From the IMG/VR virus record IMGVR_UViG_3300037423_001636, positions 141,169 to 205,168 of that record: DNA of 64,000 bases. One strand, written 5' to 3'. This document shows positions 4,562-25,029 of this stretch, piece by piece. Every line of letters starts with the position of its first letter. Within the stretch, counting starts at the first letter, position 1. The notes below the pieces were generated by a model. That model did not search any database and was not told the DNA's origin. It saw only the letters and a program-made list of their open reading frames with translations. Origin of the DNA: a virus. Taxonomy: Duplodnaviria > Heunggongvirae > Uroviricota > Caudoviricetes. Both the position numbers and the translations under genes were made by a program.

Positions 4562-5055
4562 TGGAACAACAGCTCGAACTAGACCTGAACGATACTCCCA
4601 AAAAGTGGGAACAGAGTAATCATCGCGTTATTCTTGTGGACCTAGATCGTACTCTAGCCCACTTCACCGAGAACCATGGTCCCGACAAGATTGGCGAGCC
4701 TATTGCTCCCATGATAAACCGGGTAAAGCGGTGGTTGGATGAGGGGCATGTCGTGCGTATATTTTCCGCCAGAGTCGGCCCGCATTCTGAGGAGGGTTAT
4801 GCCGAGCGCGCCCGCCCCGCCATCATTGAATGGTGCAAGCAGCATATCGGCCGCGAGTTGGATGTGACCGCCGTCAAGGACTGGAAAGCCTCTCTGATTA
4901 TCGATGATAGGGCCGATGGTTGTGAGGCCAATACTGGCCGGCTCCAGTCGGAGCGAATCTCCGATCTGGAACATAGGATTATAGAACTGGAGACCGCGTT
5001 AGATCTCACTAATAGTATATTAGTCGGGAACGAGCGGGAAATAAACCATCGCTAA
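4561..5055 (+). CDS. HAD-superfamily phosphatase (likely nucleotidase)
   Basis: Motif I reads VILVDLDRTLA (DxDxT). A motif-IV-like LIIDDRAD is also present. The start ATG at 4561 overlaps the MazG stop (TAATG), so the six-frame ORF starting at 4480 was trimmed. Confidence 0.55.
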   Translation: MEQQLELDLNDTPKKWEQSNHRVILVDLDRTLAHFTENHGPDKIGEPIAPMINRVKRWLDEGHVVRIFSARVGPHSEEGYAERARPAIIEWCKQHIGRELDVTAVKDWKASLIIDDRADGCEANTGRLQSERISDLEHRIIELETALDLTNSILVGNEREINHR

Positions 5056-8411: not shown

Positions 8412-9238
8412 GTGACATCATTCCCCTCTTCTCCTCGGCGGCCAGCCTCAAACAGGGCGGCATCTTCACGGTCGATAAAGTCGGTGACGTGGAAGCTCGC
8501 AAAAAGGAAGGTCGTAAGCGCGGCCCGCTGTCCCTGTGCAGTCTAGCCAAGGATGAGGGAATGAAGCGACTCTATATGGTCGAATCGAATTTCGTGAACT
8601 ATATGAGTGCGTGGAAGAACCTGAGGGAAGTTGGCTGCGACCTACACTTTGGACTTAAGCTAGTCATCTGTGAAAACATGGCCGACAAATCCGAAGCGTC
8701 CATGGACACGGAATCCAAGGTGGTGATCTGGCCGGCGTTGGATTCTACGACTGTATATAGCGCGCTCTGCAAGCTGTTCACGAAAGCGGCTAACGACGGT
8801 TTTTACTACGTGCCGCGGCTGGATTGGAAGACTCTATGCGCGATGTGGTCAGACGACCTGTTGCTCAGCCTGCCATTCTACTCGTCGTTCCTTGCCAAGA
8901 ACACGCTCACGTTCTCATCCATCGCGCCGCAACTCCCGGTGGTCCCGCTGCTCCTGCGCGAGATCGATCAGCAGCTTCCTATTGATGGTCTGCTCAACAG
9001 TGCTGTGGACCGCTATGCGGCGGCGAATGGACTCAAGGTTCAGCCGGTCAAGAGTGTATATTACAAACTGCGCGACGATGCTAAACCGTTTCAGGTGTGG
9101 CGGTGCGTGCTTAATCGCTCTGGCAAAAGCACATACGACAAGCCAAATATGGATTTCATGCAAAGCAGAGAATTCTCATTCGAGGCGTGGAAAGAATTGT
9201 CTGCGCAGCAGATAGTGAGTCCAAAGGGCAAACAATGA
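8408..9238 (+). CDS. Hypothetical protein
   Basis: 276-aa ORF on the coding strand, translationally coupled to both neighbours by start/stop overlaps. Confidence 0.45.
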   Translation: MSDIIPLFSSAASLKQGGIFTVDKVGDVEARKKEGRKRGPLSLCSLAKDEGMKRLYMVESNFVNYMSAWKNLREVGCDLHFGLKLVICENMADKSEASMDTESKVVIWPALDSTTVYSALCKLFTKAANDGFYYVPRLDWKTLCAMWSDDLLLSLPFYSSFLAKNTLTFSSIAPQLPVVPLLLREIDQQLPIDGLLNSAVDRYAAANGLKVQPVKSVYYKLRDDAKPFQVWRCVLNRSGKSTYDKPNMDFMQSREFSFEAWKELSAQQIVSPKGKQ

Positions 9239-14743: not shown

Positions 14744-15331
14744 CTAGTGCGGATCGACTATCTCGATCTCCGGGACAACTCCTTCAGTATTATATTGAGC
14801 CTCTTTCAACTCGAAATGAGTTTCCCTATGGCAGTTGGCGCATAGGATGTCGCATTTGTCTAGTTCTTGTTTTACAGCTGTACTGAAGCCGAGGCTTGAA
14901 TCCTTGGAAAGGGCAAAGTCCTTTTCTGAAGGGTCTCTGTGATGGAATTCAAGAGCTGTAATACATCGATTATAGCCGCATTTTATGCATTTGCCGCCTT
15001 TGTATTCGACGCAAAGCTCCTTGAACCGTCTTTGTCTTCGGCGTAGTTGTAGATGAGTGCATTTTTTACAATATCCAGACGCACCCTCTTTACCATTCTT
15101 GTTGTAGAACTCTGAGCGTGGTTTAGCCACTTTGCATTCGGGACATGTTCGAATCGGGGCGTTGATTATTCGTTCTGGTAGTTTCACTCCGTGTTTGTTG
15201 GCCCACCCTTCTAGTTTCGTGGTGCTCACCATTAAGGCGGCGGCTGTAGCCTTGATTGTTTTATGAATGTGGAGCGCATTCTCAATTTCGACTTTGGTCA
15301 TCGGTCTTCTATTCTGTGATGTTCCTCTCAT
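14744..15331 (-). CDS. HNH homing endonuclease
   Basis: 195 aa on the minus strand, opposite to the surrounding genes. HNH motifs: CIKCGYNRCITALEFHHRDPSEKD ... CANCHRETH. Confidence 0.75.
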   Translation of the reverse strand: MRGTSQNRRPMTKVEIENALHIHKTIKATAAALMVSTTKLEGWANKHGVKLPERIINAPIRTCPECKVAKPRSEFYNKNGKEGASGYCKKCTHLQLRRRQRRFKELCVEYKGGKCIKCGYNRCITALEFHHRDPSEKDFALSKDSSLGFSTAVKQELDKCDILCANCHRETHFELKEAQYNTEGVVPEIEIVDPH

Positions 15332-15431: not shown

Positions 15432-15506
15432 GCCTCTGTGATGTAACAGCAAGCATGTGACATTGCCAATGTCAGCGACCGAGGGCAGCACTCGGCAGGG
15501 GCACCA
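15432..15506 (+). tRNA. tRNA-Gly(GCC)
   Basis: Acceptor GCCTCTG/CAGGGGC. Anticodon arm TGACA-TTGCCAA-TGTCA. T arm CCGAG-GGCAGCA-CTCGG. Encoded CCA. Confidence 0.55.
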
Positions 15507-15654
15507 TTTTGAACGTCTCAATGTCGGCTTTCAATGGCTAAGAAAGCCCGCGAGAATGCGGGGAACGAATGGTGGGTGCCGTTGAGAGCCCTTTTCGCCA
15601 TTCTGCATGATGCTGCTGCCTCAACATCCAAGGCATCCGTTCAATTGAATTTTT

Positions 15655-15745
15655 GGGTCGGTGCCTAGAGTAGCGATTAGCTCGGCCTTTTAAGCCGCCG
15701 CGGGTCACACCGCCATCGGGGGTGCGAGTCCCTCCCGACCCACCA
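15655..15745 (+). tRNA. tRNA-Leu(TAA), class II
   Basis: Perfect acceptor GGGTCGG/CCGACCC. Anticodon loop TTTTAAG. Long variable arm. T arm GGGGG-TGCGAGT-CCCTC. Encoded CCA. Confidence 0.6.
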
Positions 15746-15751
15746 ATTTAC

Positions 15752-15826
15752 GGCGTGTTCGTCAAGTAGTAAGACCGGAGCTTGCAAACCTCCTATACGC
15801 TGGTGCAAATCCAGCACGCGCCTCCA
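15752..15826 (+). tRNA. tRNA-Cys(GCA)
   Basis: Acceptor GGCGTGT/ACGCGCC. Anticodon loop TTGCAAA. T arm GCTGG-TGCAAAT-CCAGC. Encoded CCA. Confidence 0.5.
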
Positions 15827-15976
15827 CTCTCCCCTCTGGGCTCTGCGCTTCAGCAGGCGTCTGACCAGTATGCGGGCCGACAAGGCAAACCGCGAAGGAT
15901 GCGAGGAACCATCGTTGTTGGTGAGGCTCTAGAGCCGAACTGACTATAGCCCCGACGTATACTGGGGCAGAATTTC

Positions 15977-16059
15977 GGGGGATGGGAATGCTATAGTGTG
16001 TTCGCCTGTTTCGCAAACAGGATATTAACAGTCCGGGGCAGATCCGGAATCCTCCACCA
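15977..16059 (+). tRNA. tRNA-Ala(CGC)
   Basis: Acceptor GGGGGAT/ATCCTCC with a G3:U70 alanine identity pair. Anticodon arm CCTGT-TTCGCAA-ACAGG. T arm TCCGG-GGCAGAT-CCGGA. Encoded CCA. Confidence 0.6.
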
Positions 16060-16143
16060 TTTTAACACACTGTTCATAAGGCACTTCTGTGATTTGTAGG
16101 TGGGTTGCACACAACCTCCACCATATAGCGTGTAAACCTATGC

Positions 16144-17007
16144 GTGGCAAAAAGACCTACAGTAACATTGGTGTGCGCATATACTGGAGAGACATTCGAG
16201 AAAGATCGTCGAGAATACCATCGTCAGCTTCGTAATGGGGCCACTCACTTTTACAAGGACAGTAAAGCAGCTGCTTTGGCCAGCGCTGAGGCAAGACGAC
16301 TGAAGCCAGTAGATAGGATTTGTCCACATTGCGGAAACACTTTCGAGGTGATACCGAGACGCCGGGCGGCGACATTTTGTTCTTCTCGTTGCGCTGCCCA
16401 CTATGGGCATGATCAGCTTAAAGCGAATCCGGAGCGAATGCTTACATTTCAAGAAAATGCGTCTGCGGCAGGAAAGAAAGCGTGGGCCGCCGGAAAACAC
16501 GATAACGCCATTCATCGAAATGGGCGTCGTCGCGCAAAAATCGAATCGCGTGGTTGCGCGGTGTGTGGTGCTGGGTTCGAATGCAAAGACAACAGCAAGC
16601 GCAAAACCTGCGGCAAGCCAGAATGCAAAAGGGAGGCTACTGCTCGCGGAGTTAGAGCCAACCCCAATTGTGGTGGAGAAAGCAATTATAGACGCTACAG
16701 ATACAAAGACATTTTGTTTGATTCGGCGTGGGAGCTTGAGATCGCTCAGTGGATGGACGGGGTTGGTATGCAATGGATTCGAGACAAAAAGATCTGGTTT
16801 CGCTGGACAGATCAAAATGGCACGATTAGACGTTATCACCCAGACTTCTACTTGCCCAGTTTTAATATTTATCTAGATCCCAAGAACAAGTTTCTACTGG
16901 AACGAGACGCTTTCAAGCTAGAGGCTGTGAAACGTGAGCATGGCATCAATCTCGTTTGGGGGAGTAGGGAAGAGATTTTAGTCTTCCTTCAGAATCTATT
17001 GGGGTAG
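16144..17007 (+). CDS. Putative homing endonuclease (N-terminal zinc ribbons + C-terminal PD-(D/E)xK-like nuclease domain) inserted in the tRNA array
   Basis: 287 aa. There are several CxxC pairs (CPHCG, CAVCG, CGKPEC). The C-terminus reads DSAWELEIAQWMD...YHPDFYLPSFNIYLDPKNK...EHGINLVW, the restriction-endonuclease-like pattern of phage homing endonucleases. It is the only ORF inside the tRNA array. Confidence 0.5.
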   Translation: MAKRPTVTLVCAYTGETFEKDRREYHRQLRNGATHFYKDSKAAALASAEARRLKPVDRICPHCGNTFEVIPRRRAATFCSSRCAAHYGHDQLKANPERMLTFQENASAAGKKAWAAGKHDNAIHRNGRRRAKIESRGCAVCGAGFECKDNSKRKTCGKPECKREATARGVRANPNCGGESNYRRYRYKDILFDSAWELEIAQWMDGVGMQWIRDKKIWFRWTDQNGTIRRYHPDFYLPSFNIYLDPKNKFLLERDAFKLEAVKREHGINLVWGSREEILVFLQNLLG

Positions 17008-17089
17008 TGGCACGACAAGTAAGGCACCGCGTTTGCAATGCGTAAGAGCGTAAGCTCGAATAGGGGCGCGATACCCCTCTACTCCACCA
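17001..17089 (+). tRNA. Class II tRNA-like unit; anticodon unresolved (loop TTTGCAA, possibly TGC)
   Basis: Acceptor GGGGTAG/CTACTCC. T arm AGGGG-CGCGATA-CCCCT. A variable-arm hairpin GAGC-GTAA-GCTC is present. Encoded CCA. The D and anticodon arms are imperfect. Confidence 0.4.
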
Positions 17090-17222
17090 TCTTGGGTATC
17101 CAATCCCGTGGCTAGAGGCCACCGTTTGGGCCGCGATAGCGTCCACCAATTTGGCTAGCGACCTTCGGGTGTCTAGCTCCCGTTTGAGTCGGGCGTTCCG
17201 CGGTGGCGATAAACCCCTTTGT

Positions 17223-17300
17223 GTGAGCGTGGGCCAGATAGCAGGCCGCCATCCTTCCAAGCTGGTTTTTACGCGGATGCGAGTTCCGCCGCTCACTCCA
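17223..17300 (+). tRNA. tRNA-Gly(TCC)
   Basis: Perfect acceptor GTGAGCG/CGCTCAC. D stem GGCC/GGCC. Anticodon loop CTTCCAA. T arm GCGGA-TGCGAGT-TCCGC. Encoded CCA. Confidence 0.5.
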
Positions 17301-17431
17301 CTTTCCCGTCCTGAGAACAAAGGCCCATTGGGACTAGCTAGCATGATTCTGGTGGGGTCAGCAAAGGCTATGGACCCGCGGTCCATATCGGATGGCTCAG
17401 CCGGATTGCAACGGCACGGGAATTCACTTTT

Positions 17432-17518
17432 GGGTTAGTCACATAGCAGCAATTGTAGCGCACTGTAAATGCGCCGAGCTAACGCTCTCCGAAGGTGCGA
17501 GTCCTTCCTAGCCCACCA
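17432..17518 (+). tRNA. tRNA-Tyr(GTA), class II
   Basis: Acceptor GGGTTAG/CTAGCCC. Anticodon arm GCGCA-CTGTAAA-TGCGC. Long variable arm. T arm GAAGG-TGCGAGT-CCTTC. Encoded CCA. Confidence 0.6.
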
Positions 17519-17523
17519 TTTTC

Positions 17524-17598
17524 GGCCCTGTCATCCAACAGTCAGGATGTCCGCTTGATAGGCGGGTCATATCGGTGCGAATCCGTTCGGGGCTACCA
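17524..17598 (+). tRNA. tRNA-Ile(GAT)
   Basis: Acceptor GGCCCTG/CGGGGCT. D stem ATCC/GGAT with loop AACAGTCA. Anticodon arm TCCGC-TTGATAG-GCGGG. T loop TGCGAAT. Encoded CCA. Confidence 0.6.
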
Positions 17599-17602
17599 TT
17601 TT

Positions 17603-17673
17603 AGGTCCGTGATGAAGCATCAACAGAGCCTCCAAAACTCTGGACGAGGGAGCGTTACCTTCCGGATCTGCCA
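17603..17673 (+). tRNA. tRNA-like unit with an apparent 9-nt anticodon loop (CCTCCAAAA)
   Basis: Acceptor AGGTCCG/CGGATCT. T arm GAGGG-AGCGTTA-CCTTC. Encoded CCA. The anticodon arm CAGAG-CCTCCAAAA-CTCTG has a 9-nt loop. Confidence 0.35.
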
Positions 17674-17814
17674 TTTTATTGCTGGGTCAATTAACCGATC
17701 TATTCCAACCTAGGTATCGGTTAGTTCGATACCGAAAGGTGTCTACAGCAGCCAATTCCTCGTCAATAAACCGAGAACGGAAGGTAAGACAGCGCCGGGT
17801 CAAATGCTGCATAC

Positions 17815-17887
17815 GGAGTCAGACCTAGTGGTCAGCGTCGCCTGAAGAGCGAAGCAGAGTGGGATGCGATCTCCCCGGGCTCCACCA
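17815..17887 (+). tRNA. tRNA-Phe(GAA)
   Basis: Acceptor GGAGTCA/GGGCTCC (6 of 7 positions paired). Anticodon loop CTGAAGA. T loop TGCGATC. Encoded CCA. Confidence 0.55.
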
Positions 17888-17993
17888 TTTTCTATTGCAG
17901 CCACAAGCCGTATGACGCTAAAGGTCCTCATAAGTCCTGCTTCGAAAGGAGCTATGCCCGGTGAAACTCCGCGGGGTCTGCAACCATTTTTAT

Positions 17994-18068
17994 ACAGACG
18001 TGGGTCATTAGCTGATCGCTCGGCTTGGGACCGAGATTAAGTGAGTGCGATTCTCACCGTCTGTACCA
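17994..18068 (+). tRNA. tRNA-Pro(TGG)
   Basis: Perfect acceptor ACAGACG/CGTCTGT. D stem GGTC/GATC. Anticodon arm CTCGG-CTTGGGA-CCGAG. T arm GTGAG-TGCGATT-CTCAC. Encoded CCA. Confidence 0.65.
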
Positions 18069-18168
18069 TTTTGATCCAACGCATGGAGGGGTGAAACTCT
18101 GTCGAGCTACTCCCCGGTTGTGCAGATAGCCGTTCGACAGCTGGCTATCATTTGGGTCAATTTATTTT

Positions 18169-18242
18169 GGGCTATTGTTGAATGAGTATCATAGGAATCT
18201 GTCTAATTCCAATAGCGAGTGCGAGTCTCGCATAGCCCGCCA
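18169..18242 (+). tRNA. tRNA-Asp(GTC)
   Basis: Perfect acceptor GGGCTAT/ATAGCCC. Anticodon arm GGAAT-CTGTCTA-ATTCC. T arm GCGAG-TGCGAGT-CTCGC. Encoded CCA. Confidence 0.6.
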
Positions 18243-18527
18243 TTTTAGCCGCACGCATTCTCTAAGATCCTTGGGGTCTTTCGGTCTCATGGGAGACGTG
18301 TTGTTGAACCGTCAGTTCAACTGATGGACTTGACGGTCCATGGCCTCCCTTTCTCTCGTGGCATAGCTGAAGCGGTACCGGTCCGCCCAGCTTCTGGCTT
18401 GCGCTGACGCCGCCCGCTTTGCGGCTTAGGGTGGCAGCCGAATCCGCCGTGCTCCTGTTGTAGGCGGGGATTAGCTCCTGCCGGTCAGGCAACGCGAATC
18501 GCGGTAGTCACGAGAGGATCTTTTTAC

Positions 18528-18603
18528 GGACGCTTGACCCAGCAGCTACGGTACCTGCCCTACACGCAGAGGTTCGGGGGTGCGAGTCCCTCAGCGTCCA
18601 CCA
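18528..18603 (+). tRNA. tRNA-Val(TAC)
   Basis: Perfect acceptor GGACGCT/AGCGTCC. Anticodon loop CCTACAC (position 33 is C). T arm GGGGG-TGCGAGT-CCCTC. Encoded CCA. Confidence 0.55.
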
Positions 18604-18610
18604 TTTTTAT

Positions 18611-18688
18611 TCCCGTCGAGGAGTCTAGCGACACCGGCGCACTGTTAATGCGTGTTCGAGCATGGAGCGTAACCATGGGCGGGAGCCA
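18611..18688 (+). tRNA. tRNA-Asn(GTT)
   Basis: Acceptor TCCCGTC/GGCGGGA. Anticodon arm GCGCA-CTGTTAA-TGCGT. T arm CATGG-AGCGTAA-CCATG. Encoded CCA. Confidence 0.55.
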
Positions 18689-18692
18689 TTTC

Positions 18693-18767
18693 GGATCGTT
18701 CGTCTATCAGTTAGGACAGAAGCCCGACATGCTTCAGAGAACCGTGCAACTCGGTTACGATCCACCA
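18693..18767 (+). tRNA. tRNA-Val(GAC)
   Basis: Perfect acceptor GGATCGT/ACGATCC. Anticodon arm GAAGC-CCGACAT-GCTTC. T arm AACCG-TGCAACT-CGGTT. Encoded CCA. Confidence 0.6.
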
Positions 18768-18771
18768 TTTT

Positions 18772-18846
18772 CGGGATATGGCCTAACAGTAGGGCGCTAG
18801 TCTGGGGGACTAGAGTGCGCCGGGGCAGCACCGGCTATCCCGACCA
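18772..18846 (+). tRNA. tRNA-Pro(GGG)
   Basis: Perfect acceptor CGGGATA/TATCCCG. Anticodon arm CTAGT-CTGGGGG-ACTAG. T arm GCCGG-GGCAGCA-CCGGC. D loop AACAGTA. Encoded CCA. Confidence 0.6.
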
Positions 18847-18852
18847 TTTTAA

Positions 18853-18928
18853 CGGTGTGTATTGTCAAGGGCAGACGGCCTTGTTCGGAACGAGGAGGTT
18901 GGGATATCGTAATTCCCCACGCCGACCA
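18853..18928 (+). tRNA. tRNA-Pro(CGG), with a canonical-type elbow
   Basis: Acceptor CGGTGTG/CACGCCG. Anticodon arm CCTTG-TTCGGAA-CGAGG. T loop ATCGTAA (T55 C56). D loop AAGGGCA (G-rich). Encoded CCA. Confidence 0.6.
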
Positions 18929-18932
18929 TTTT

Positions 18933-19046
18933 GGCTCTAAAGTTCAGCGCAGTCGTCACGAGGTTGATCGCTGGTTGATGCGCGCGAGAAGAACGCCCAC
19001 CCTGATCGAGTGGGAGGCACGGGTGAAATACCCGTTGGAGCCGCCA
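18933..19046 (+). tRNA. Over-long (114-nt) tRNA-like unit; internal arms unresolved
   Basis: Acceptor GGCTCTA/TGGAGCC with an encoded CCA. T arm ACGGG-TGAAATA-CCCGT. The body is ~35 nt longer than a class II tRNA, so it may be an insertion or two fused units. Confidence 0.3.
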
Positions 19047-19052
19047 ATTTAC

Positions 19053-19126
19053 GGACCCATAATGTAGAGTAGCATTCACGGCTTTGAACCGTTGCAGTCT
19101 AGGTGCAAGTCCTAGTGGGTCTGCCA
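19053..19126 (+). tRNA. tRNA-Gln(TTG)
   Basis: Acceptor GGACCCA/TGGGTCT. Anticodon loop CTTTGAA. T arm CTAGG-TGCAAGT-CCTAG. Encoded CCA. Confidence 0.55.
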
Positions 19127-19132
19127 TTTTGT

Positions 19133-19206
19133 TGGCTCCTAGTGTAATAGCAGCACGACACTCTCTGAAAGTGTTTGTGTGGGTGCGACTCCCACGGAGC
19201 CTGCCA
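19133..19206 (+). tRNA. tRNA-Gln(CTG)
   Basis: Acceptor TGGCTCC/GGAGCCT (position 1 is unpaired). Anticodon arm ACACT-CTCTGAA-AGTGT. T arm GTGGG-TGCGACT-CCCAC. Encoded CCA. Confidence 0.5.
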
Positions 19207-19211
19207 ATTTC

Positions 19212-19287
19212 GGGGATGTAGCTCAGCCAGTAGAGCGCCTGCATGGCATGCAGTAGGTCGTGGGAGCGAAGCCCATCATCTCCACCA
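19212..19287 (+). tRNA. tRNA-Ala(GGC)
   Basis: Acceptor GGGGATG/CATCTCC with G3:U70. D arm GCTC-AGCCAGTA-GAGC. Anticodon arm CCTGC-ATGGCAT-GCAGG. T loop AGCGAAG. Encoded CCA. Confidence 0.65.
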
Positions 19288-19317
19288 ATTTCAGTTGCAG
19301 ACGTTCGCTGTTCGTCC

Positions 19318-19430
19318 ATATCCGGACACAATGTCCGGATAAATGTCCGGATAGAGGAAGTTCGCTCGTGCTCCACTCGTAGCGGCAGAGTCTGCCATGT
19401 CTGGATATGTCCGGATTATGGCCGGATTCG
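19318..19430. promoter_or_regulatory. Palindrome/iteron cluster on the core TGTCCGGAT (operator- or origin-like)
   Basis: A perfect palindrome ATCCGGACA-CA-ATGTCCGGAT lies at about 19319-19341. Direct repeats follow: AAATGTCCGGATAG (19343), ATGTCTGGAT (19398), ATGTCCGGATT (19408) and GGCCGGATT (19421). The cluster sits in a ~340-nt gap without tRNAs. Confidence 0.5.
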
Positions 19431-19440
19431 CTAACGACCG

Positions 19441-19620
19441 CCCATCCGCACTAACCCGAATAAGCTGAGAGCGTGAGTGGCTCTTTGAAGCATGGTTGGG
19501 GCAGTCACCGGGTAAAGCCGTGACCATCGTTGCGACCGTCGATCGCCCGGTGAGAGAAATGAACGTCACTTAGGGAGACGATACCTGAGTTACAGAAGGG
19601 CGGCTATCGCGACTGAATAT
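19441..19620 (+). ncRNA. Candidate structured non-coding RNA (not tRNA-shaped) inside the array
   Basis: A 5' CCGCCC pairs with a 3' GGGCGG about 165 nt apart. Internal hairpins include GAGAGC-GTGAGTG-GCTCTT and TCACCGGG...CCCGGTGA. The unit ends ...ACTGAATATTTT with no CCA. Confidence 0.3.
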
Positions 19621-19625
19621 TTTAC

Positions 19626-19704
19626 GGTGCTCAAGCTACAGTAGACGGGCAACTCCCTCTTAAGGAGACCATTCGTGAGGCTGCAACTGCCTCGGGCACC
19701 ACCA
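19626..19704 (+). tRNA. tRNA-Lys(CTT)
   Basis: Acceptor GGTGCTC/GGGCACC. Anticodon loop CTCTTAA. T arm GAGGC-TGCAACT-GCCTC. Encoded CCA. Confidence 0.45.
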
Positions 19705-19709
19705 ATTTT

Positions 19710-19794
19710 GCGGTTCATACAAACCAAAAGGGGCACAGGTCATATGAGTGCTGAATATGGTTGAGTTTGGGTGAAATTCCCGGACGCCGCACCA
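19710..19794 (+). tRNA. tRNA-like unit (85 nt); anticodon unresolved
   Basis: The T arm TTGGG-TGAAATT-CCCGG and the acceptor 3' strand ACGCCGC with CCA are clear. The 5' strand GCGGTTC pairs at only 5 of 7 positions. Confidence 0.3.
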
Positions 19795-20104
19795 ATTTAG
19801 AGTGAGAATCAACGCATCCCAATGGGAGCAGCTAACGAGCTTAGCACTCACTCTATCCATCTTGTGTGACGGAATAACGTTTATCGTTAGGCGTAACGTG
19901 ATCGGTTGCCGAAAAGGTGACTGACGCAGGATAGACTGAACAGGAAAGGCGGATTGTCGTATGAGGTTGGCCAACCTCAGCGGGAATCGCTCTAAGGTAT
20001 TATCTCTGATAACGACCTTGGTTTTGGGGCGACGGCCCCTTCTAGCCTAAGCTCCTATTCGGTTGAAGCCTTGGGAGTAGTCAGGATTCTCCCCACATAT
20101 TTGC

Positions 20105-20192
20105 AGGAGGGTGGCTCGACAAGTAAGGCAACGGTTTCATAAGCCGTGGGGAGAAATCCCTTATACGGGGGCAGTACCCGTTCCTCCTACCA
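20105..20192 (+). tRNA. Class II tRNA with apparent anticodon CAT (loop TTCATAA)
   Basis: Acceptor AGGAGGG/TCCTCCT. The D region TGGCTCGACAAGTAAGGCA is shared with the unit at 17001. Anticodon arm ACGGT-TTCATAA-GCCGT. Variable-arm hairpin GGGA-GAAA-TCCC. T arm ACGGG-GGCAGTA-CCCGT. Encoded CCA. Confidence 0.45.
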
Positions 20193-20198
20193 ATTTAC

Positions 20199-20273
20199 GC
20201 CGCCAACTCATAGAAAGCGATGAACTGACTTGGTAAGTCAGGCAGCAGGGCGCAAGTCCCTGTGGTGGCTCCA
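20199..20273 (+). tRNA. tRNA-Thr(GGT)
   Basis: Acceptor GCCGCCA/TGGTGGC. D stem TCAT/ATGA. Anticodon arm CTGAC-TTGGTAA-GTCAG. T arm CAGGG-CGCAAGT-CCCTG. Encoded CCA. Confidence 0.65.
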
Positions 20274-20346
20274 TTTTGATCCTGTACACAGGATCATACA
20301 GCGGTTGACAGTCCCCGCTGGGAGTGGTTAGAGTCCACAGGACCGA

Positions 20347-20429
20347 GCCGATGTGGTGGAACGTATACACAACAGGTCGAGAGCCTGTCGCCGCAAGGAT
20401 TGGGGGTGCGAGTCCCTCCATCGGCACCA
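20347..20429 (+). tRNA. tRNA-Leu(GAG), class II
   Basis: Perfect acceptor GCCGATG/CATCGGC. Anticodon arm ACAGG-TCGAGAG-CCTGT. 13-nt variable arm. T arm GGGGG-TGCGAGT-CCCTC. Encoded CCA. Confidence 0.6.
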
Positions 20430-20435
20430 ATTTAT

Positions 20436-20520
20436 GGGCAGTTGGCGTAACAAGCAGCCGCGCGAGTCTTAGAAGCTCGTGGAGAAATCCGTATGGGTGC
20501 AATTCCCTTACTGCCTACCA
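20436..20520 (+). tRNA. tRNA-Leu(TAG), class II
   Basis: Acceptor GGGCAGT/ACTGCCT. Anticodon arm CGAGT-CTTAGAA-GCTCG. 13-nt variable arm. T loop TGCAATT. Encoded CCA. Confidence 0.6.
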
Positions 20521-20526
20521 ATTTAT

Positions 20527-20611
20527 GCGCGTATGGTGGAACTACTATACACAGCAGTTTCAGGAACTGCCGACTTCGGTCTTGGGGGTGGAAATCCCTC
20601 TACGCGCACCA
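20527..20611 (+). tRNA. tRNA-Leu(CAG), class II
   Basis: Perfect acceptor GCGCGTA/TACGCGC. Anticodon arm GCAGT-TTCAGGA-ACTGC. 13-nt variable arm. T arm GGGGG-TGGAAAT-CCCTC. Encoded CCA. Confidence 0.65.
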
Positions 20612-20745
20612 ATTTCCCCGTAGCTGAGAGAGATGCAAGCGCCATATCGAAACGTCGCAAGATGGATTCCGCAAGGACGGTATGGGACGATGTGCAAACA
20701 TCAGAACAGAGTGGAACTCACACTCTCGGGGAAAAATCTTTTCAC

Positions 20746-20823
20746 GGCCCGTTAGTATTACGTTCGCTAGATCGCTGCCCTTTCAAGGCAGAGGAGACGG
20801 AGCATCACCGTCACGGGCTGCCA
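20746..20823 (+). tRNA. tRNA-Glu(TTC)
   Basis: Acceptor GGCCCGT/ACGGGCT. Anticodon arm CTGCC-CTTTCAA-GGCAG. T arm GACGG-AGCATCA-CCGTC. Encoded CCA. The D region is oversized. Confidence 0.5.
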
Positions 20824-20828
20824 ATTTT

Positions 20829-20903
20829 CCCCTCGTCTTCTATACAGTAGGAAAACAGATTCTCAATCTGAAAAAGCGGATGCAAGTTCCGCCGAGGGGA
20901 CCA
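20829..20903 (+). tRNA. tRNA-Glu(CTC)
   Basis: Perfect acceptor CCCCTCG/CGAGGGG. D loop TATACAGTAG. Anticodon loop TTCTCAA. T arm GCGGA-TGCAAGT-TCCGC. Encoded CCA. Confidence 0.6.
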
Positions 20904-20907
20904 ATTT

Positions 20908-20961
20908 GACTCCACGAAAACTATCAAGTTAGCGAGGGTGAGAATCCCTTTGGAGTCGCCA
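20908..20961 (+). ncRNA. Mini tRNA-like unit (54 nt): acceptor stem + T arm + CCA, with the D and anticodon arms replaced by a short hairpin
   Basis: Perfect acceptor GACTCCA/TGGAGTC. Discriminator G and an encoded CCA. T arm GAGGG-TGAGAAT-CCCTT. The central 19 nt fold only as AACT-ATCA-AGTT. Confidence 0.4.
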
Positions 20962-20967
20962 ATTTAC

Positions 20968-21057
20968 CGGCTCGTGCTTGGAATGTATACAGCGGGGTCT
21001 TAAAAACCTTGGCTCCTTCAATGGAGATTGTGGGTGCGAGTCCCATCGGGCCGACCA
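20968..21057 (+). tRNA. Class II tRNA, Leu-like (anticodon loop CTTAAAA, TAA)
   Basis: Acceptor CGGCTCG/CGGGCCG. Anticodon stem GGGGT/ACCTT (two G-U pairs). 19-nt variable region. T arm GTGGG-TGCGAGT-CCCAT. Encoded CCA. Confidence 0.4.
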
Positions 21058-21216
21058 ATTTGAGTGTAGTGTAACAGTGAGCACGTTGGTGAGAGCAGGT
21101 TTCCTCAATCGTGACACCGCTGGCTCATAACTGGCAAGGACATGATTTGATAACTGTAAGCCTTGAATACATGCCAAAGGTCCGGTGCAATTCCGGCGCT
21201 CAACCTAAATTTTCAT

Positions 21217-21300
21217 GCCGTTGTGGTGAAATAGTAAACACAGTAGTCTCAAAAACTACCGACGAAAGTCTTGTGGGCGCGACTCCCACCTTCGGCACCA
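21217..21300 (+). tRNA. tRNA-Leu(CAA), class II; acceptor imperfect
   Basis: Anticodon arm GTAGT-CTCAAAA-ACTAC. 13-nt variable arm. T arm GTGGG-CGCGACT-CCCAC. Encoded CCA. Acceptor GCCGTTG/CTTCGGC has two U-U mismatches. Confidence 0.45.
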
Positions 21301-21468
21301 ATTTCACGGTCATTGAGGGCGACGAAATCAACCCATCCGAGGCAAAGTCGAGCGACCTGAGCCGTGAATCCATTATGGTCCCGTGTCGCAGCAGACCCGA
21401 GAGATTTATACCCTCTAGCGCGCCAGATTAGCGCCGTGATCAGGGGCAGCACCTGACGGGACTACCAA

Positions 21469-21570
21469 TTTCTCTGTTCCCGAAGGAGTGCATTCCAAAG
21501 TAGCCCATGCACGGGGCGGTGAGGTTCTATCGCGATCATACAGAGCTTTTGACCCGCGCGAACAGAGATT
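21469..21570 (+). ncRNA. About 100-nt structured RNA closed by a 9-bp terminal helix (first of the Ro60-upstream structured-RNA series)
   Basis: A 5' TCTCTGTTC pairs with a 3' GAACAGAGA about 85 nt away, followed by TTCTTTTT. Internal GTGCAT/ATGCAC and other hairpins are present. There is no CCA end. Confidence 0.35.
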
Positions 21571-21576
21571 CTTTTT

Positions 21577-21653
21577 GGCTCCTACTCCTAGATAGCGAGG
21601 ACCTCGCCTCGTAAGCGAGAGCTGAGGAGACTGCGATGTCTCAGGAGCCTCCA
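21577..21653 (+). tRNA. tRNA-Thr(CGT)
   Basis: Perfect acceptor GGCTCCT/AGGAGCC. D stem TCC/GGA. Anticodon arm CTCGC-CTCGTAA-GCGAG. T stem GAGAC/GTCTC with a 6-nt loop TGCGAT. Encoded CCA. Confidence 0.55.
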
Positions 21654-21656
21654 CTT

Positions 21657-22340
21657 TAGTCAGATAGCGAAACGCATCGGTTACTTCCGCCAACCCGTTG
21701 GGCTCACGCCCGACAAAAAGCCCGTGAACATGGAACCACGGCGACCGTGCAAATTATTCTTCTGACTTTCTACTTTGCTGTGGCGATAGGAAGCACTTAC
21801 TTCTTCGTTATTCAAATGAAACTGCCTCGCAAGGGGCGTCTGTGCATCCGCCTGTTCCCAGCAATCTATTTCCTGATGTCGTTAGAGTAAACGGTTACTT
21901 CATATTGGAATGATCGGTCTGCAAGGACCATACCCGTTCTCGCCTGTTACTCAGGAAAACTATTTTTCATTTTGCCGTAGCGAAGATCGCGGTTACTTCA
22001 TTGCAAACGAAACAACACCGCTATCGTTTATTCTCGGCAATCCACTTTCCTCAGTAGCGCAGATTGGGAGTTCTTCTATTATCACAAAAGGCCCGGTCGT
22101 CTATTCTCTGAGGGATCAATTTGGAGTGGCGTTAGAAAAGGAGTTCTTCGTATCATAAACGAGTAGTGAGAGTTCGAACCTCTCGGGGTCCACTATTACG
22201 GGCCTTTAGTGTAATGGCAGCACACTTTGGGGCGCAAGCCCCGCTCGCCTTTTCGCCTGTTCCCTCCAATCTTTTTCACGGTAGCGTAGAATACGATTTC
22301 TTCGTGAGTGCAACACCCCACCAGCCCCGCCATTACTTTT
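21657..22340 (+). ncRNA. Series of about six ~100-110-nt structured RNA modules immediately upstream of the Ro60 gene (candidate Y RNA / YrlA-like paralogues)
   Basis: Each unit repeats a hairpin of the form GCGxAGAxCGC followed by GTTACTTC or GTTCTTCGT (at about 21665, 21790, 21885, 21975, 22045, 22135 and 22280). Several units are closed by long-range 5'/3' pairing (for example AGTCAGA at 21657 with TCTGACT at 21762). The last unit has a canonical T arm GAGAG-TTCGAAC-CTCTC (22168-22184) and a CAT anticodon-like loop (22147-22163) but does not close into a tRNA acceptor stem. Confidence 0.4.
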
Positions 22341-22431
22341 TATGGGGCTGCTAGCGTATTCGCTAATTCTCCGTGATATTCTCTATACAATTCCCCACGG
22401 GCAATCAAGCTTTGTGGTGGCGCTAATAAAC

Positions 22432-23850
22432 ATGAAGACCAATAAAAAGTCAGTATCGACATTCAAGACCGCCCCGGCCGCCAAGCGTGTTGCCGGTGGT
22501 TCCGGCGCTGTCGCCGACACGATTACTGCGGAGCAAACTCTCCGTCGTTGCGTGCTAACCAATCTCCTGTGGGAAGATTGTGCGTATGAATCCGGAGTGG
22601 AGATCGCACAAAAAATCCGCGAGACCATTCCGCAGGTTCCCGCCGATCGCGTCGCAGCAATCGCCATCGAAGCGCGCGGCCAGCAAAAGCTCCGCCACGT
22701 TCCGCTGCTCCTCGTTCGCGAGATGGCGCGGTTGGATACACACCGCCATGTCGTGGCTGACACTCTTCCCCAGATCATTCAGCGGGCCGATGAGCTTGCT
22801 GAGTTTTGCGCAATCTGGCAGAAGGACGACAAAAAGCCGTTGTCCAAGACCCTATCAGCGCAAGCCAAGAAGGGTCTGGCCCGCGCCTTCGTCAAGTTCG
22901 ACGAATATGCTCTTGCGAAGTACAATCGCGACAACGCGGTCAAGCTGCGCGATGTGCTGTTCCTTTGCCACGCCAAGCCGGAAAACAAGGCTCAAGAGAA
23001 GCTGTTCAAGCGGCTGATCAACGATGAGCTGAAGACCCCGGACACGTGGGAAGTTGAGCTGTCGGCCTCCACCGACAAGAAGGCTTCATGGACTCGTCTC
23101 CTCGAAGAGGCCAAGCTTGGCGCTCTAGCCTTCATCCGCAACCTGCGCAATCTGACTCAGGCTGGCGTCGAGAAGAATCTCATCCGAGACTACTTCAAGA
23201 CGGTCAACCCGGAACGCGTTCTTCCGTTCAACTTCTTGTCCGCAGTTCGTGAGGCTCCAGAATACACCGCTCAGCTTGAGACCCTCATGCTGAAGTGTCT
23301 GGCAACCTTCCCGAAGCTGAAGGGCAAGACGGTGTTTATTGTTGACGTGTCGGGCTCGATGACCAGTGGGTTAGCCGGCAAGTCGTCCATGAACCGACTC
23401 GACGCAGCAGCGGCACTGACTGCGCTGATGCGGGAAGTCTGCGAAGAGCCAGTTATCTACGCTACGGCTGGATGTGACGGTTCTCGCAAACACGAGACGA
23501 AGGAAGTCCCAGCGGCCCGCGGTTTCGCGCTGATGGAAGAGATTCGCAAGATGCAGCACTCCCTCGGGGGTGGTGGTATCTTCCTCTGCCAGAGCACGAA
23601 GTTCGTTAAGGAGCTGGAGAAGACGGCTGATCGGCTTATTGTCCTGAACGACAGCCAAGATTGTGACTATGTGAAGGACCCGAATCAGGCGGCAGCGTTT
23701 GGTCGGTTCAACTATCTCATGGACGTTTCTTGCCACACGAAGGGTGTAGCCTACAAAGCTTTCACTCACATCGACGGCTGGAGCGAAAGTGTGATTAACT
23801 TCGTATATGAGACGGAGCGCATGGCGCTTCAATCGCGGCAGAAGAAGTAG
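22432..23850 (+). CDS. rsr: Ro60 / Rsr orthologue (TROVE domain + C-terminal vWA domain)
   Basis: The N-terminal TROVE-like region reads ...RRCVLTNLLWEDCAYESG...HVPLLLVREMAR.... The C-terminal vWA/MIDAS reads KTVFIVDVSGSMTSG. The architecture matches Ro60. The start was moved from the six-frame ORF (22342) to the ATG at 22432 because the extension overlaps an RNA hairpin. Confidence 0.75.
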   Translation: MKTNKKSVSTFKTAPAAKRVAGGSGAVADTITAEQTLRRCVLTNLLWEDCAYESGVEIAQKIRETIPQVPADRVAAIAIEARGQQKLRHVPLLLVREMARLDTHRHVVADTLPQIIQRADELAEFCAIWQKDDKKPLSKTLSAQAKKGLARAFVKFDEYALAKYNRDNAVKLRDVLFLCHAKPENKAQEKLFKRLINDELKTPDTWEVELSASTDKKASWTRLLEEAKLGALAFIRNLRNLTQAGVEKNLIRDYFKTVNPERVLPFNFLSAVREAPEYTAQLETLMLKCLATFPKLKGKTVFIVDVSGSMTSGLAGKSSMNRLDAAAALTALMREVCEEPVIYATAGCDGSRKHETKEVPAARGFALMEEIRKMQHSLGGGGIFLCQSTKFVKELEKTADRLIVLNDSQDCDYVKDPNQAAAFGRFNYLMDVSCHTKGVAYKAFTHIDGWSESVINFVYETERMALQSRQKK

Positions 23851-24700
23851 CCTTCTGTATAGCAGCATACGCTTCCTCCTCGCTCGGAAAGTAGCCCACA
23901 AAAGCTCTTCCTAGCCGGGTTGGAAGCTGTGCTTTCCATGGGTCCCGAGTGCGCGCCTTCACTCGGGAAACCCCTTCAAATCTAGAGCTGAGCTTTAGCG
24001 CTTTGTCTCGAATCGTCATATAGGCGGCTTGCTTGCGAGGCAGAGCGAGATCGGTTCCAGAGCCCCAAATGTAGTCTCCCAGAGCATATACGGGCCGACG
24101 CCCGTTGACTCGGAAGACACTCCCTTTCCCTCGTTCGTTCGTTGTGATGTCGATTCGATATTCGACGCTGAGTCGTTTACAGAGATCGCTCAGAAAGGAC
24201 CAATCCTGATCGGCTGGTCCCGCAATCTGGATCTCATGAGTGCCAAATCGCGGGTCAACACATACGCATCCATCTCCATCAATCAATCCCAGATACCAGT
24301 AGCACTGTAGATGTGACGGGATGGTGTCTAGTATCGCCCGTGGAGAACTCGACTTAGAACAGTAGCCAAGAGCGCTCAGATGTTCGACGAGATAGTGGTT
24401 GGTTGTCGTAATCACCCACGCATTTTTCCACCCCTCATTTCGAGAGGGTTTAGAGTAGCATCCCCACCGCCCGGTGCGCAGCATAATGGGTCTGAAGTGT
24501 TCAACGTCTGGCGATGTCGTGGATAGGACTACGCTTTGTGTTCTATGTGTGTTTCGGATGTGCCCATCGGCCCAAAGCAGGCCGAGGATATAGGCGTGAA
24601 CAGGCTCTGTCACGTGAATGAATGGCTGTGGATTCACAGCGTATTGGTCGAACGGCTTGAGCCGGCGTTTGACTGGTCTGGGGATGGTATTGGTCTGCAT
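23795..24700 (-). CDS. LAGLIDADG homing endonuclease (two LAGLIDADG motifs, AP2-like C-terminus)
   Basis: Minus strand. The motifs are YILGLLWADGHI and YWYLGLIDGDGCV. An AP2-like DNA-binding tail GYFPSEEEAYAA follows. The gene is free-standing between the Ro60 gene and further tRNAs. Confidence 0.8.
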   Translation of the reverse strand: MQTNTIPRPVKRRLKPFDQYAVNPQPFIHVTEPVHAYILGLLWADGHIRNTHRTQSVVLSTTSPDVEHFRPIMLRTGRWGCYSKPSRNEGWKNAWVITTTNHYLVEHLSALGYCSKSSSPRAILDTIPSHLQCYWYLGLIDGDGCVCVDPRFGTHEIQIAGPADQDWSFLSDLCKRLSVEYRIDITTNERGKGSVFRVNGRRPVYALGDYIWGSGTDLALPRKQAAYMTIRDKALKLSSRFEGVSRVKARTRDPWKAQLPTRLGRAFVGYFPSEEEAYAAIQKATSSAAIEAPCAPSHIRS

Positions 24701-24753
24701 ACAGGATTGCGACTGGATTTACACGCATTCCGAGCAGAGTTTTATTGATTTTC

Positions 24754-24825
24754 GCCGATTGCTTCAGCAAGCCCGCGAGTTTTGTAAACTTGAGGAAGAG
24801 AGGGCAGCACTCTCAGTCGGCTCCA
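24754..24825 (+). tRNA. tRNA-Thr(TGT)
   Basis: Acceptor GCCGATT/AGTCGGC. Anticodon arm CGAGT-TTTGTAA-ACTTG. T arm GAGAG-GGCAGCA-CTCTC. Encoded CCA. The D region is short. Confidence 0.45.
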
Positions 24826-24831
24826 TTCTAT

Positions 24832-24920
24832 GGTGGTAGAGGCAGAAGTAACTCAAAGCACCGCCCTGTGAAGGCGGGTCCGCAAGGACATAGCGAGTGT
24901 GAGACTCGTCTACCACCCCA
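24832..24920 (+). tRNA. tRNA-His-like (GTG) with G-1 and a C73 discriminator, atypical body (long variable hairpin, weak D arm)
   Basis: Acceptor GTGGTAG/CTACCAC with an extra 5' G at position -1 and a C discriminator (the His identity set). Anticodon arm CCGCC-CTGTGAA-GGCGG. Variable hairpin GTCC-GCAA-GGAC. T arm GCGAG-TGTGAGA-CTCGT. Encoded CCA. Confidence 0.4.
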
Positions 24921-24926
24921 ATTTAT

Positions 24927-25001
24927 GGGCCTATAGTTCAATAGACAGAACCTCAGTTTGCGGAACTGACGATCCCAGTGCGAGTCTGGGTGGGCCTACC
25001 A
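24927..25001 (+). tRNA. tRNA-Arg(GCG)
   Basis: Acceptor GGGCCTA/TGGGCCT. Anticodon arm TCAGT-TTGCGGA-ACTGA. T arm CCCAG-TGCGAGT-CTGGG. Encoded CCA. Confidence 0.5.
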
Positions 25002-25029
25002 TTCTACGCTTGACTCCGGCCGCTAGGCT

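Follow-up and report, generated by a model that had tools for sequence, protein, structure and literature searches.

Long tRNA arrays are known to carry pseudogenes, 3 of 26 in Anabaena (PMC8421152), and homing endonucleases that cut inside phage tRNA genes, such as SegB of T4/T6, drive both the expansion and the collapse of tRNA loci (PMC13096335; PMC8421152). A 64,000-nt stretch of tailed-phage DNA (Caudoviricetes; IMG/VR record IMGVR_UViG_3300037423_001636, positions 141,169 to 205,168), referred to below as the window, was analyzed with regard to a 54-nt tRNA-like unit at 20908-20961 on the + strand, referred to as the mini unit. This unit lies inside a tRNA array and consists of a tRNA acceptor stem, T arm, discriminator and CCA end, with a short linker in place of the D and anticodon arms. 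As with the pseudogenes of the Anabaena trn operon (PMC8421152) and the SegB-reshaped T4/T6 clusters (PMC13096335), the surrounding array is dense and divergent, with encoded CCA ends, very short spacers and interspersed homing-endonuclease genes, and the mini unit is non-decoding and lineage-specific. It differs from the pseudogenes of such arrays in that the loss is clean: exactly the D and anticodon arms are missing, while the acceptor and T pairs, the discriminator and the CCA are intact. With about even confidence, the mini unit is read here as the remnant of an internally deleted tRNA-like gene that is still co-transcribed and probably processed to a CCA-ended minihelix.

Synthetic acceptor-TΨC minihelices (PMC9976931; PMC4919913) are a second close likeness. 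They share with the mini unit a 7-bp stem stacked on a 5-bp stem, a T loop, a discriminator and a CCA, so that the mini unit carries what RNase P, the CCA-adding enzyme and aminoacyl-tRNA synthetases need. It differs from these constructs in being natural and genome-encoded, in having its 5′ strand broken by a 19-nt hairpin linker, which makes it a three-way junction, and in its T loop (UGAGAAU, with G55/A56 and not U55/C56). Non-decoding tRNA mimics are also represented by mascRNA and menRNA (~58-61 nt), which are released by tRNA enzymes and end in CCA (PMC11693755; PMC8457004). These, however, are eukaryotic, derive from long noncoding RNAs, are cloverleaf-like, receive their CCA after transcription and are conserved across species. 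In phage T4, species 1 and species 2 are stable non-tRNA RNAs of ~120-140 nt that are encoded in the tRNA cluster, co-transcribed and co-processed with it, and of unknown function. Both are conserved among T4-like phages, whereas the mini unit is an orphan; to our knowledge, no sequence or structural relation between them and the mini unit has been demonstrated.

The mini unit reads GACTCCA, CGAAAACTATCAAGTTAGC, GAGGG TGAGAAT CCCTT, TGGAGTC, G, CCA. The 5′ strand of the acceptor stem (GACTCCA, 20908-20914) pairs with the 3′ strand (TGGAGTC, 20951-20957) at seven of seven positions, all Watson-Crick, and is completed by the discriminator G at 20958 and an encoded CCA at 20959-20961. The T arm (GAGGG TGAGAAT CCCTT, 20934-20950) has five of five pairs, including one G.U pair. 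Its loop (positions 54-60, U G A G A A U) is non-canonical, G55 and A56 standing where U55 and C56 are usual. The D arm, anticodon arm and variable region are replaced by a linker of 19 nt (20915-20933), in which AACT (20919-20922) and AGTT (20927-20930) form a hairpin around the loop ATCA. The stems, the linker hairpin, the discriminator and the CCA had been described in the original prediction, which proved exact to the base. The unconstrained minimum-energy fold (-17.2 kcal/mol, z = -2.6) consisted of the acceptor stem, the AACU-AUCA-AGUU hairpin and the T hairpin; in the resulting 12-bp acceptor/T stack the 3′ strand is unbroken (positions 61-72) and leads into an NCCA end. When the mini unit was folded with both neighbours, the structure remained the same in the minimum-energy and centroid folds. 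No fold was found that gives its sequence to the neighbouring tRNAs, each of which is complete on its own. The A56 of the T loop was also considered as a sign of a missing D-loop partner; this idea was abandoned, since C56 is missing from otherwise ordinary tRNAs of the array as well.

The absence of D and anticodon arms was borne out by the folds and by the linker, merely 19 nt separating the acceptor and T stems. Without a 7-nt loop there is no anticodon, the sole internal hairpin having a loop of 4 nt (6 nt with the closing pair open), and the mini unit cannot decode. This anatomy effectively refutes an extremely reduced working tRNA of the kind known from armless nematode mitochondrial tRNAs and D-armless tRNA-Ser (PMC4394434), which resemble the mini unit in their extreme reduction in size. 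Reduced units do exist in arrays of this type, such as the 66-71 nt tRNA-Trp and, in two other viral loci, 65-nt units that lack a D arm, but the armless mitochondrial tRNAs keep their anticodon arm and decode (PMC4394434), whereas in the mini unit this arm is lost and no anticodon can be presented. Moreover, all 20 amino acids are covered by array anticodons without the mini unit (constrained folds; Phe at ~17815-17887). The mini unit gave no Rfam match at E <= 1 and no ARAGORN call even at lowered thresholds. Two mutually exclusive folds returned by the mitochondrial mode of ARAGORN both ignored the true acceptor stem and were disregarded. The aberrant units of the array matched no Rfam family besides tRNA, and no tmRNA was found in the window by ARAGORN and Rfam, the body of the mini unit being just 19 nt. 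A phage attachment-site copy of a host tRNA 3′ end was rejected because both acceptor strands are present, and no integrase was returned by family searches of the array and the flanking open reading frames (ORFs).

A chance match or an assembly artefact was likewise rejected, the probability of either being negligible. In a first-order Markov simulation with the dinucleotide statistics of the window, an equally strict match was expected 0.23 times per 64 kb on both strands and ~0.02 times on the array strand, in-register placement not being counted. The T-loop style and spacers of the mini unit also match those of the array. An independent Logan assembly (run SRR35148478) showed 100% identity over 21.5 kb, and the mini unit is thus not an assembly artefact. 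The contig that encodes an identical copy of Ro60, a protein whose gene lies in the array, represents the same phage (100% identity); having no variation, it confirms the assembly only.

Within the array, the mini unit is in register. It starts 4 nt after the CCA of a complete tRNA-Glu(CUC) (20829-20903, +; 45.2 bits with the Rfam tRNA model) and ends 6 nt before a complete tRNA-Leu(UAA) (20968-21057, +; called by ARAGORN), the spacers being ATTT (20904-20907, +) and ATTTAC (20962-20967, +), respectively. Nearly all array units end in CCA followed by (A/T)TTT, and adjacent units are only 4-7 nt apart. Of the motif CCA[AT]TTT, the + strand of the window has 41 copies, almost all within the array, and the - strand 7. 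RNase E prefers to cut A/U-rich sequence just after the CCA of tRNAs, which the AUUU spacers fit, and the CCA-(A/T)TTT spacers may be RNase E-type processing sites. The best sigma-70-like promoter match of the region (TTGACA-18-TAGAGT, 20305-20334, +) lies in the leader of tRNA-Leu(GAG) (20294-20346), which is shared with a related phage (78% identity to L004 381-433; numbers with L denote the viral loci used for comparison), and this suggests an internal promoter for the Leu/Glu block. Between this match and 21468, no terminator-like site was found on the + strand. From these two observations, the mini unit is probably co-transcribed with the Leu/Glu tRNAs and, being in register within the block, is expected to be excised like its neighbours.

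RNase P measures the acceptor/T-arm stack (PMC4919913) and would cut at G20908. On the 3′ side, cleavage within the AUUU spacer would be followed by trimming back to the CCA. In model minihelices, an acceptor/T stack with NCCA is accepted by the CCA-adding enzyme and by several synthetases (PMC9976931). The predicted product is a stable, non-decoding, CCA-ended three-way junction RNA of 54 nt. Its in-register position between CCA-AUUU spacers like those of every other unit, together with the measuring of the stack by RNase P (PMC4919913), would also fit a processing module that acts in cis, as an extra entry for RNase P and RNase E by which tRNA-Glu and tRNA-Leu are released or balanced. Such a role is improbable, as 17 other junctions of the array join units directly through 4-7 nt spacers and without any module, and as the mini unit is absent from relatives.

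The closest sequence to the mini unit was found in a 114-nt tRNA-like unit of the same array (18933-19046, +), which has a 7-bp acceptor stem with one U.G pair, the T arm ACGGG TGAAATA CCCGT, G73 and CCA. That this unit combines a proper acceptor stem, T arm and CCA with an overlong body (by ~35 nt) had been proposed before and was confirmed by scan and folds. The excess of ~35-40 nt formed a long hairpin in the place of the D loop in a constrained fold, and the loop in the anticodon position has 9 nt (CCUGAUCGA). An intron-containing tRNA or a tRNA-Ser(CGA) was rejected, as ARAGORN with introns allowed returned nothing and attempts to construct a satisfactory anticodon stem failed. In a comparison of all CCA-ended T-arm modules collected, the 3′ module of the mini unit was closest to that of the 114-nt unit. 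Identity covers 7 of the 8 acceptor and discriminator positions and 11 of the 17 T-arm positions, and it amounts to 84% over 32 nt when the spacer is counted. By a rough estimate, a match this close would arise by chance among ~45 units with a probability of 0.02, and no parent closer than the 114-nt unit was found. Six stem positions differ between the two units without a single pair being broken. From the 114-nt unit to the mini unit, the differences comprise two double compensatory changes (G2-C71 to A2-U71; C50-G64 to A50-U64) and two one-sided changes (U6.G67 to C6-G67; A49-U65 to G49.U65). Both units share G73 and a UGA-type T loop, and similar T loops occur in units with a long arm, i.e., Ser(UGA) at 26420-26503 and the CAU-anticodon units at 17892-17986 and 19709-19794. 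The 114-nt unit is an orphan tRNA-like RNA and, judged by these similarities, a putative paralogue of the mini unit with an enlarged body.

To look for further units of this type, 97 additional viral stretches carrying the T-arm and spacer signature of the array were collected, and ~1.4 Mb of phage tRNA arrays was scanned. The structural scan accepted units of 38-68 nt with perfect stems and a CCA, and matches that were 3′ parts of full tRNAs were removed. Two units were left, the mini unit and a 48-nt unit in a relative (L006 4620-4667) with the sequence CGGCATG, CGTGTTCCGTAAG, AGGGG TGCGATT CCCCT, CATGCCG, A, CCA. A covariance model built from both (R1) scored 66 bits for the former and 57 bits for the latter; over 1.19 Mb, nothing else exceeded 26 bits, and the eight matches inspected were parts of longer tRNA-like units. 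Eight further candidates from the 97 loci were discarded, seven being 3′ parts of full tRNAs and one lacking a tRNA context. A relaxed scan (6/7 acceptor or 4/5 T-stem pairs) gave 40 versus 45 matches on the two strands, which indicates noise. Mini units thus account for 2 of ~980 distinct tRNA-like units in phage arrays. They belong to one phage clade but differ in location and, apart from generic T-arm bases, have no sequence in common.

The origin of the L006 unit can be traced. In acceptor stem, A73 and T loop it agrees exactly with tRNA-Leu(CAG) of two other phages (L131 and L094), and its linker keeps TTCCGT where tRNA-Leu(CAG) has the 3′ strand of the variable arm, ATCCGT. Sequence comparison thus shows it to be a tRNA-Leu from which roughly positions 10-45, holding the D and anticodon arms, were deleted. 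The unit directly follows a tRNA-Leu(UAG) with two acceptor-stem mismatches, which itself abuts an inserted HNH gene, and it is followed downstream by a conserved non-tRNA element and then by a methyltransferase gene. This neighbourhood is visibly damaged.

Among 5.8 billion protein clusters, the closest relatives of the window reached 66-73% Ro60 identity. The arrays of three relatives (L004, L006 and L008), which are partly collinear with the window array in the Leu/Glu block, were compared, and the mini unit is absent from the matching position in each. Between tRNA-Glu(CUC) and tRNA-Leu(UAA), 420 nt with a minus-strand ORF are found in L004 and a tRNA-Leu(CAA) in L006; between tRNA-Leu(UAG) and tRNA-Leu(UAA), L008 has two tRNA-like units of ordinary length. 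Neither the mini unit nor the 114-nt unit nor two other odd units had a match in 155 loci by short-word BLAST, and viral and genome collections were scanned for the 3′ module of the mini unit with exact and degenerate patterns, likewise without a match. Ro60-linked loci in viral contigs and metagenomes yielded only more distant relatives, none with the mini unit, and the GenBank phage collection held no close relative of the window at the DNA level. The gene flanking the array on its 5′ side, another mobile HNH-type gene, has a best relative of 54% identity.

Mobile genes are frequent at this locus. Inside the array or next to it are four endonuclease-like genes, of HNH type or LAGLIDADG: a gene of a family with HNH-bearing members (14744-15331, -, beside the array), an HNH-like gene (16144-17007, +, inside), a LAGLIDADG gene (23795-24700, -, inside) and an HNH gene (27820-28497, +, beside). 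In addition, an RNA ligase gene inside the array (25030-26079, +) has HNH-family matches within its N-terminal 120 residues. Just downstream of the HNH-like gene, a tRNA fragment is found at 17090-17148. It ends in 11 nt (AGCGTCCACCA) that are identical to the 3′ end of tRNA-Val(UAC) (18528-18603), and it also has the T-loop CGCGATA of the preceding unit.

In the reading favoured here, the mini unit probably descends from a tRNA or tRNA-like gene whose variable arm was long and which belonged to the same small family as the 114-nt unit. An internal deletion would have removed the D and anticodon arms and kept the acceptor stem, T arm, discriminator and CCA. The linker hairpin is separated from the T stem by 3 nt, which is the position expected of a long variable arm, and it may be the remainder of such an arm. 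The mini unit would then be a by-product of rapid array turnover driven by homing endonucleases and recombination, and no role of its own would be needed. This reading is preferred because the unit is an orphan, is rare, has a deletion precedent in L006, lies in a worn mobile array and is dispensable for decoding. Among the explanations offered in the original prediction, a degenerate copy was the best supported, given the absence of the unit from relatives, the derivation of the L006 unit by deletion and an array full of endonuclease genes and fragments.

Several points speak against a remnant. All 12 stem pairs are intact, where an old neutral remnant should show mismatches, and no partly decayed mini units were found, R1 scores falling directly from 57 to 26 bits. 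The pair-preserving changes relative to the 114-nt unit imply that helix integrity was selected during at least part of the divergence. No full-length parent with the acceptor stem of the mini unit was found, and phage genomes tend to purge useless DNA. As the databases searched hold no relative above 73% Ro60 identity, conservation over short distances is beyond reach. The intact pairs, the lack of decayed copies, the pair-preserving changes and the tendency of phages to purge useless DNA are equally explained by a recent deletion, for which no close relative is available to date the event.

The same features can be taken as signs of a selected non-decoding small RNA, a tentative and rather unlikely alternative in which a stable tRNA top half present in tRNA-like amounts would titrate a factor that reads the acceptor stem, T arm or CCA. 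The target could be a host toxin acting on tRNA 3′ ends by modification or cleavage, an aminoacyl-tRNA synthetase, or a host enzyme of tRNA processing or CCA repair. The helices, discriminator, CCA and register show no flaw, the stem changes relative to the 114-nt paralogue are without exception pair-preserving, and two related phages have one perfect mini unit each and no decayed ones. Phage tRNAs are known counter-defence tools (PMC11555353; PMC13096335), and several synthetases recognise acceptor-T minihelices (PMC9976931). On the other hand, the mini unit is not conserved in the nearest relatives, the two mini units differ in position and share just generic T-arm bases, the L006 unit has the appearance of accidental damage, such units number just 2 in ~980, and the sequence points to no target. 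A more specific proposal is that phages of this clade deliberately make anticodon-less, CCA-ended top halves, cut out by host tRNA-processing enzymes, as decoys or competitive inhibitors of acceptor-end readers such as CCA-modifying toxins or a synthetase, in which case the window and L006 units would be two independent inventions. This is considered doubtful and less probable than a selected RNA in general. The decoy and regulatory small RNA functions originally suggested found no support in the tests run, and a selected RNA was kept solely as the unlikely rival described above.

As Ro60 and RNA ligase genes lie inside the array, the mini unit might also be a Y RNA-like ligand or substrate of a phage Ro60/RNA ligase module. 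The Ro60 gene (22342-23850, +) was identified by its Pfam TROVE match (E = 1e-17). Bacterial Y RNAs mimic tRNA, and the YrlA of Mycobacterium smegmatis, with a 7-bp acceptor-like stem, is cleaved by RNase P and receives a CCA (PMC4201824). The mini unit resembles such YrlA-type RNAs in being a tRNA mimic encoded next to the Ro60 gene. In YrlA, however, the 5′ and 3′ ends form a Ro-binding helix and the T arm, acceptor hairpin and D arm are permuted (PMC4201824); the mini unit has none of these and follows the order of a tRNA. None of the six GNCGAA(N)G matches of the array region lies inside it. Furthermore, Y RNAs were identified elsewhere, at 22121-22271 and as Y-like repeats directly upstream of Ro60, with the same layout in relatives. 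A role of the mini unit as Ro60 ligand is thus very improbable, and the partner RNAs of Ro60 are, as judged from sequence, the Y RNAs at 21.8-22.3 kb.

The YrlA-like RNA at 22121-22271 (+) has a 5′ strand, TTGGAGTGGCG, that pairs with the 3′ strand CGCC...CTCCAA, and a permuted tRNA-like module made up of a T arm (22168-22184; GAGAG TTCGAAC CTCTC), an acceptor-like hairpin (22185-22206) and a D arm with GG (22208-22225). This layout matches the published description of YrlA (PMC4201824). Y RNA-like units are arranged in tandem directly upstream of Ro60 (21780-22340), several shorter repeats preceding the unit at 22121-22271. The 5′ motif GTRGCG..AGA, followed by a TTACTTC/TTCTTC-type box, is present in four copies, and a 3′ motif similar to CGCCTGTTCCC in five, most of them followed by AATC. 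Only one of the tandem units has the permuted module, whose canonical TTCGAAC T loop and GG D loop are unlike those of the phage's own tRNAs. A YrlA-like layout upstream of Ro60 was also found in L004 and L008, with variants in L019 and L025; in L006, L010, L011 and L034, the tRNA-like module of the Y-like units is absent or incomplete. More than one Y-like unit is also present in L008 and L010.

Two further irregular units had been grouped with the mini unit and the 114-nt unit, and this grouping does not hold, since the members differ in kind. The 71-nt unit at 17603-17673 (+) does have the 9-nt loop reported for it (CCUCCAAAA), closed by a 5-bp stem, but this is the Trp anticodon loop CUCCAAA flanked by a C.A mismatch, so that the unit is not functionally aberrant. 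It has a reduced D arm and the T loop AGCGTTA, and it is the only unit of the array with a CCA anticodon. The 9-mer, the unusual T loop AGCGTTA and G73 recur in a 66-nt counterpart from an unrelated viral contig (L062 11269-11334). The unit is presumably a working tRNA-Trp(CCA) of a reduced phage type. At 16060-16125 (+), a tRNA-like unit of ~65 nt had been assumed; folding revealed neither an acceptor stem nor a T arm, just a non-tRNA hairpin (z = -0.5) that ends in CCACCA and lies in the leader of the HNH-like gene 16144-17007.

Reduction of another type was observed in other loci. CCA-ended tRNA-like units of 65 nt without a D arm are present at L097 2465-2529 and L112 7668-7732 (minus strand; identical copy in L123). 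They have the central hairpin TTGGGGTCCACCCA in common, differ by compensatory changes in the acceptor and T stems, and lie between tRNA-Gly(UCC) and tRNA-Met in both cases. They give the impression of a reduced tRNA-like RNA that is maintained.

The window is phage DNA from a contig of ~205 kb, with tightly packed genes on the + strand that include a DnaE-type polymerase, a DnaB-type helicase and an exonuclease. The tRNA array occupies 15432-27780 (+) and holds ~50 tRNA-like genes. A purpose-written scan, which required an intact 7-bp acceptor stem, a T stem of 4-5 bp and a terminal NCCA, found 40 units; the array also includes imperfect units, fragments and non-tRNA RNAs. ARAGORN called 18 tRNAs, and 17 units reached the threshold of the Rfam tRNA model when the region was searched with permissive filters.

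In nearly all tRNAs of the array, T-loop position 55 is G and not U. The first three T-loop bases are TGC in 14 units, GGC in 6, AGC in 5 and CGC in 3, the universal TTC being found in 1 only. The same altered elbow was seen in loci L059-L155. Among 982 distinct phage-array units, GG in the D loop was present in 383 of 401 units with TTC loops and in 63 of 258 with TGC loops; G55 thus goes together with the loss of the D-loop GG. Positions 54 and 58 of the T loop also appear swapped (T..A to A..T). Taken together, these features suggest a coherent alternative tRNA elbow, widespread among uncultured phages, and no report of it was found in the literature searched.

Long extra arms or enlarged bodies were observed, in constrained folds, on array tRNAs that normally have short variable regions. 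The Lys(UUU), Ala(CGC), Ala(UGC), CAU-anticodon and His(GUG) units are located, in this order, at 15655-15745, 15977-16059, 17001-17089, 20105-20192 and 24833-24920. Sizes are 91 nt for Lys(UUU), 83 nt for Ala(CGC), 89 nt for Ala(UGC), 88 nt for the CAU-anticodon tRNA and 88 nt for His(GUG). The long Lys(UUU) region shows 79% identity to L008 6410-6506; the His tRNA of L004 is of normal length, unlike the His(GUG) of the window.

Several array sequences other than tRNAs were noted. A conserved element was found at 21301-21376 of the window, L008 ~9122-9230 and L006 ~4668-4830, in each phage 3′ of a Leu-type unit. It has the ends CAYTGAGGG ... AGCGACCTGAG and a variable middle, gave no Rfam match and folded no better than shuffled sequence. 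A 77-nt CCA-ended unit at 17678-17754, in which a 6-bp terminal stem encloses two hairpins, folds with unusual stability (z = -3.6); the 155 loci contain no homologue of it. A weak match to the manA RNA motif, which is known from phages and marine metagenomes, was obtained at 19839-20103 (24.7 bits, gathering score 55.2; E = 0.006 with 13 kb searched). Further stretches without assignment are 18243-18527, 19288-19625, 20612-20745 (z = -2.2), 21058-21216 and 26163-26247.

With its altered elbow, long extra arms, Ro60 gene and Y RNA series, the array is a more unusual object than the mini unit. Read as a remnant, the mini unit adds one more to the tRNA gene remnants of mobile phage arrays, and one whose minihelix anatomy is unusually clean. 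It would be a snapshot of array turnover in which whole functional halves of tRNA genes can be lost while their processing signals survive, and CCA-ended units that are not tRNAs would have to be expected by annotators of such arrays. Should it prove functional, it would be the first case of a virus employing a natural minihelix RNA, and RNA-based counter-defence would gain a new type. In both cases, it offers a natural substrate for bacterial RNase P, 3′-end trimming and synthetases acting on a tRNA without a body.

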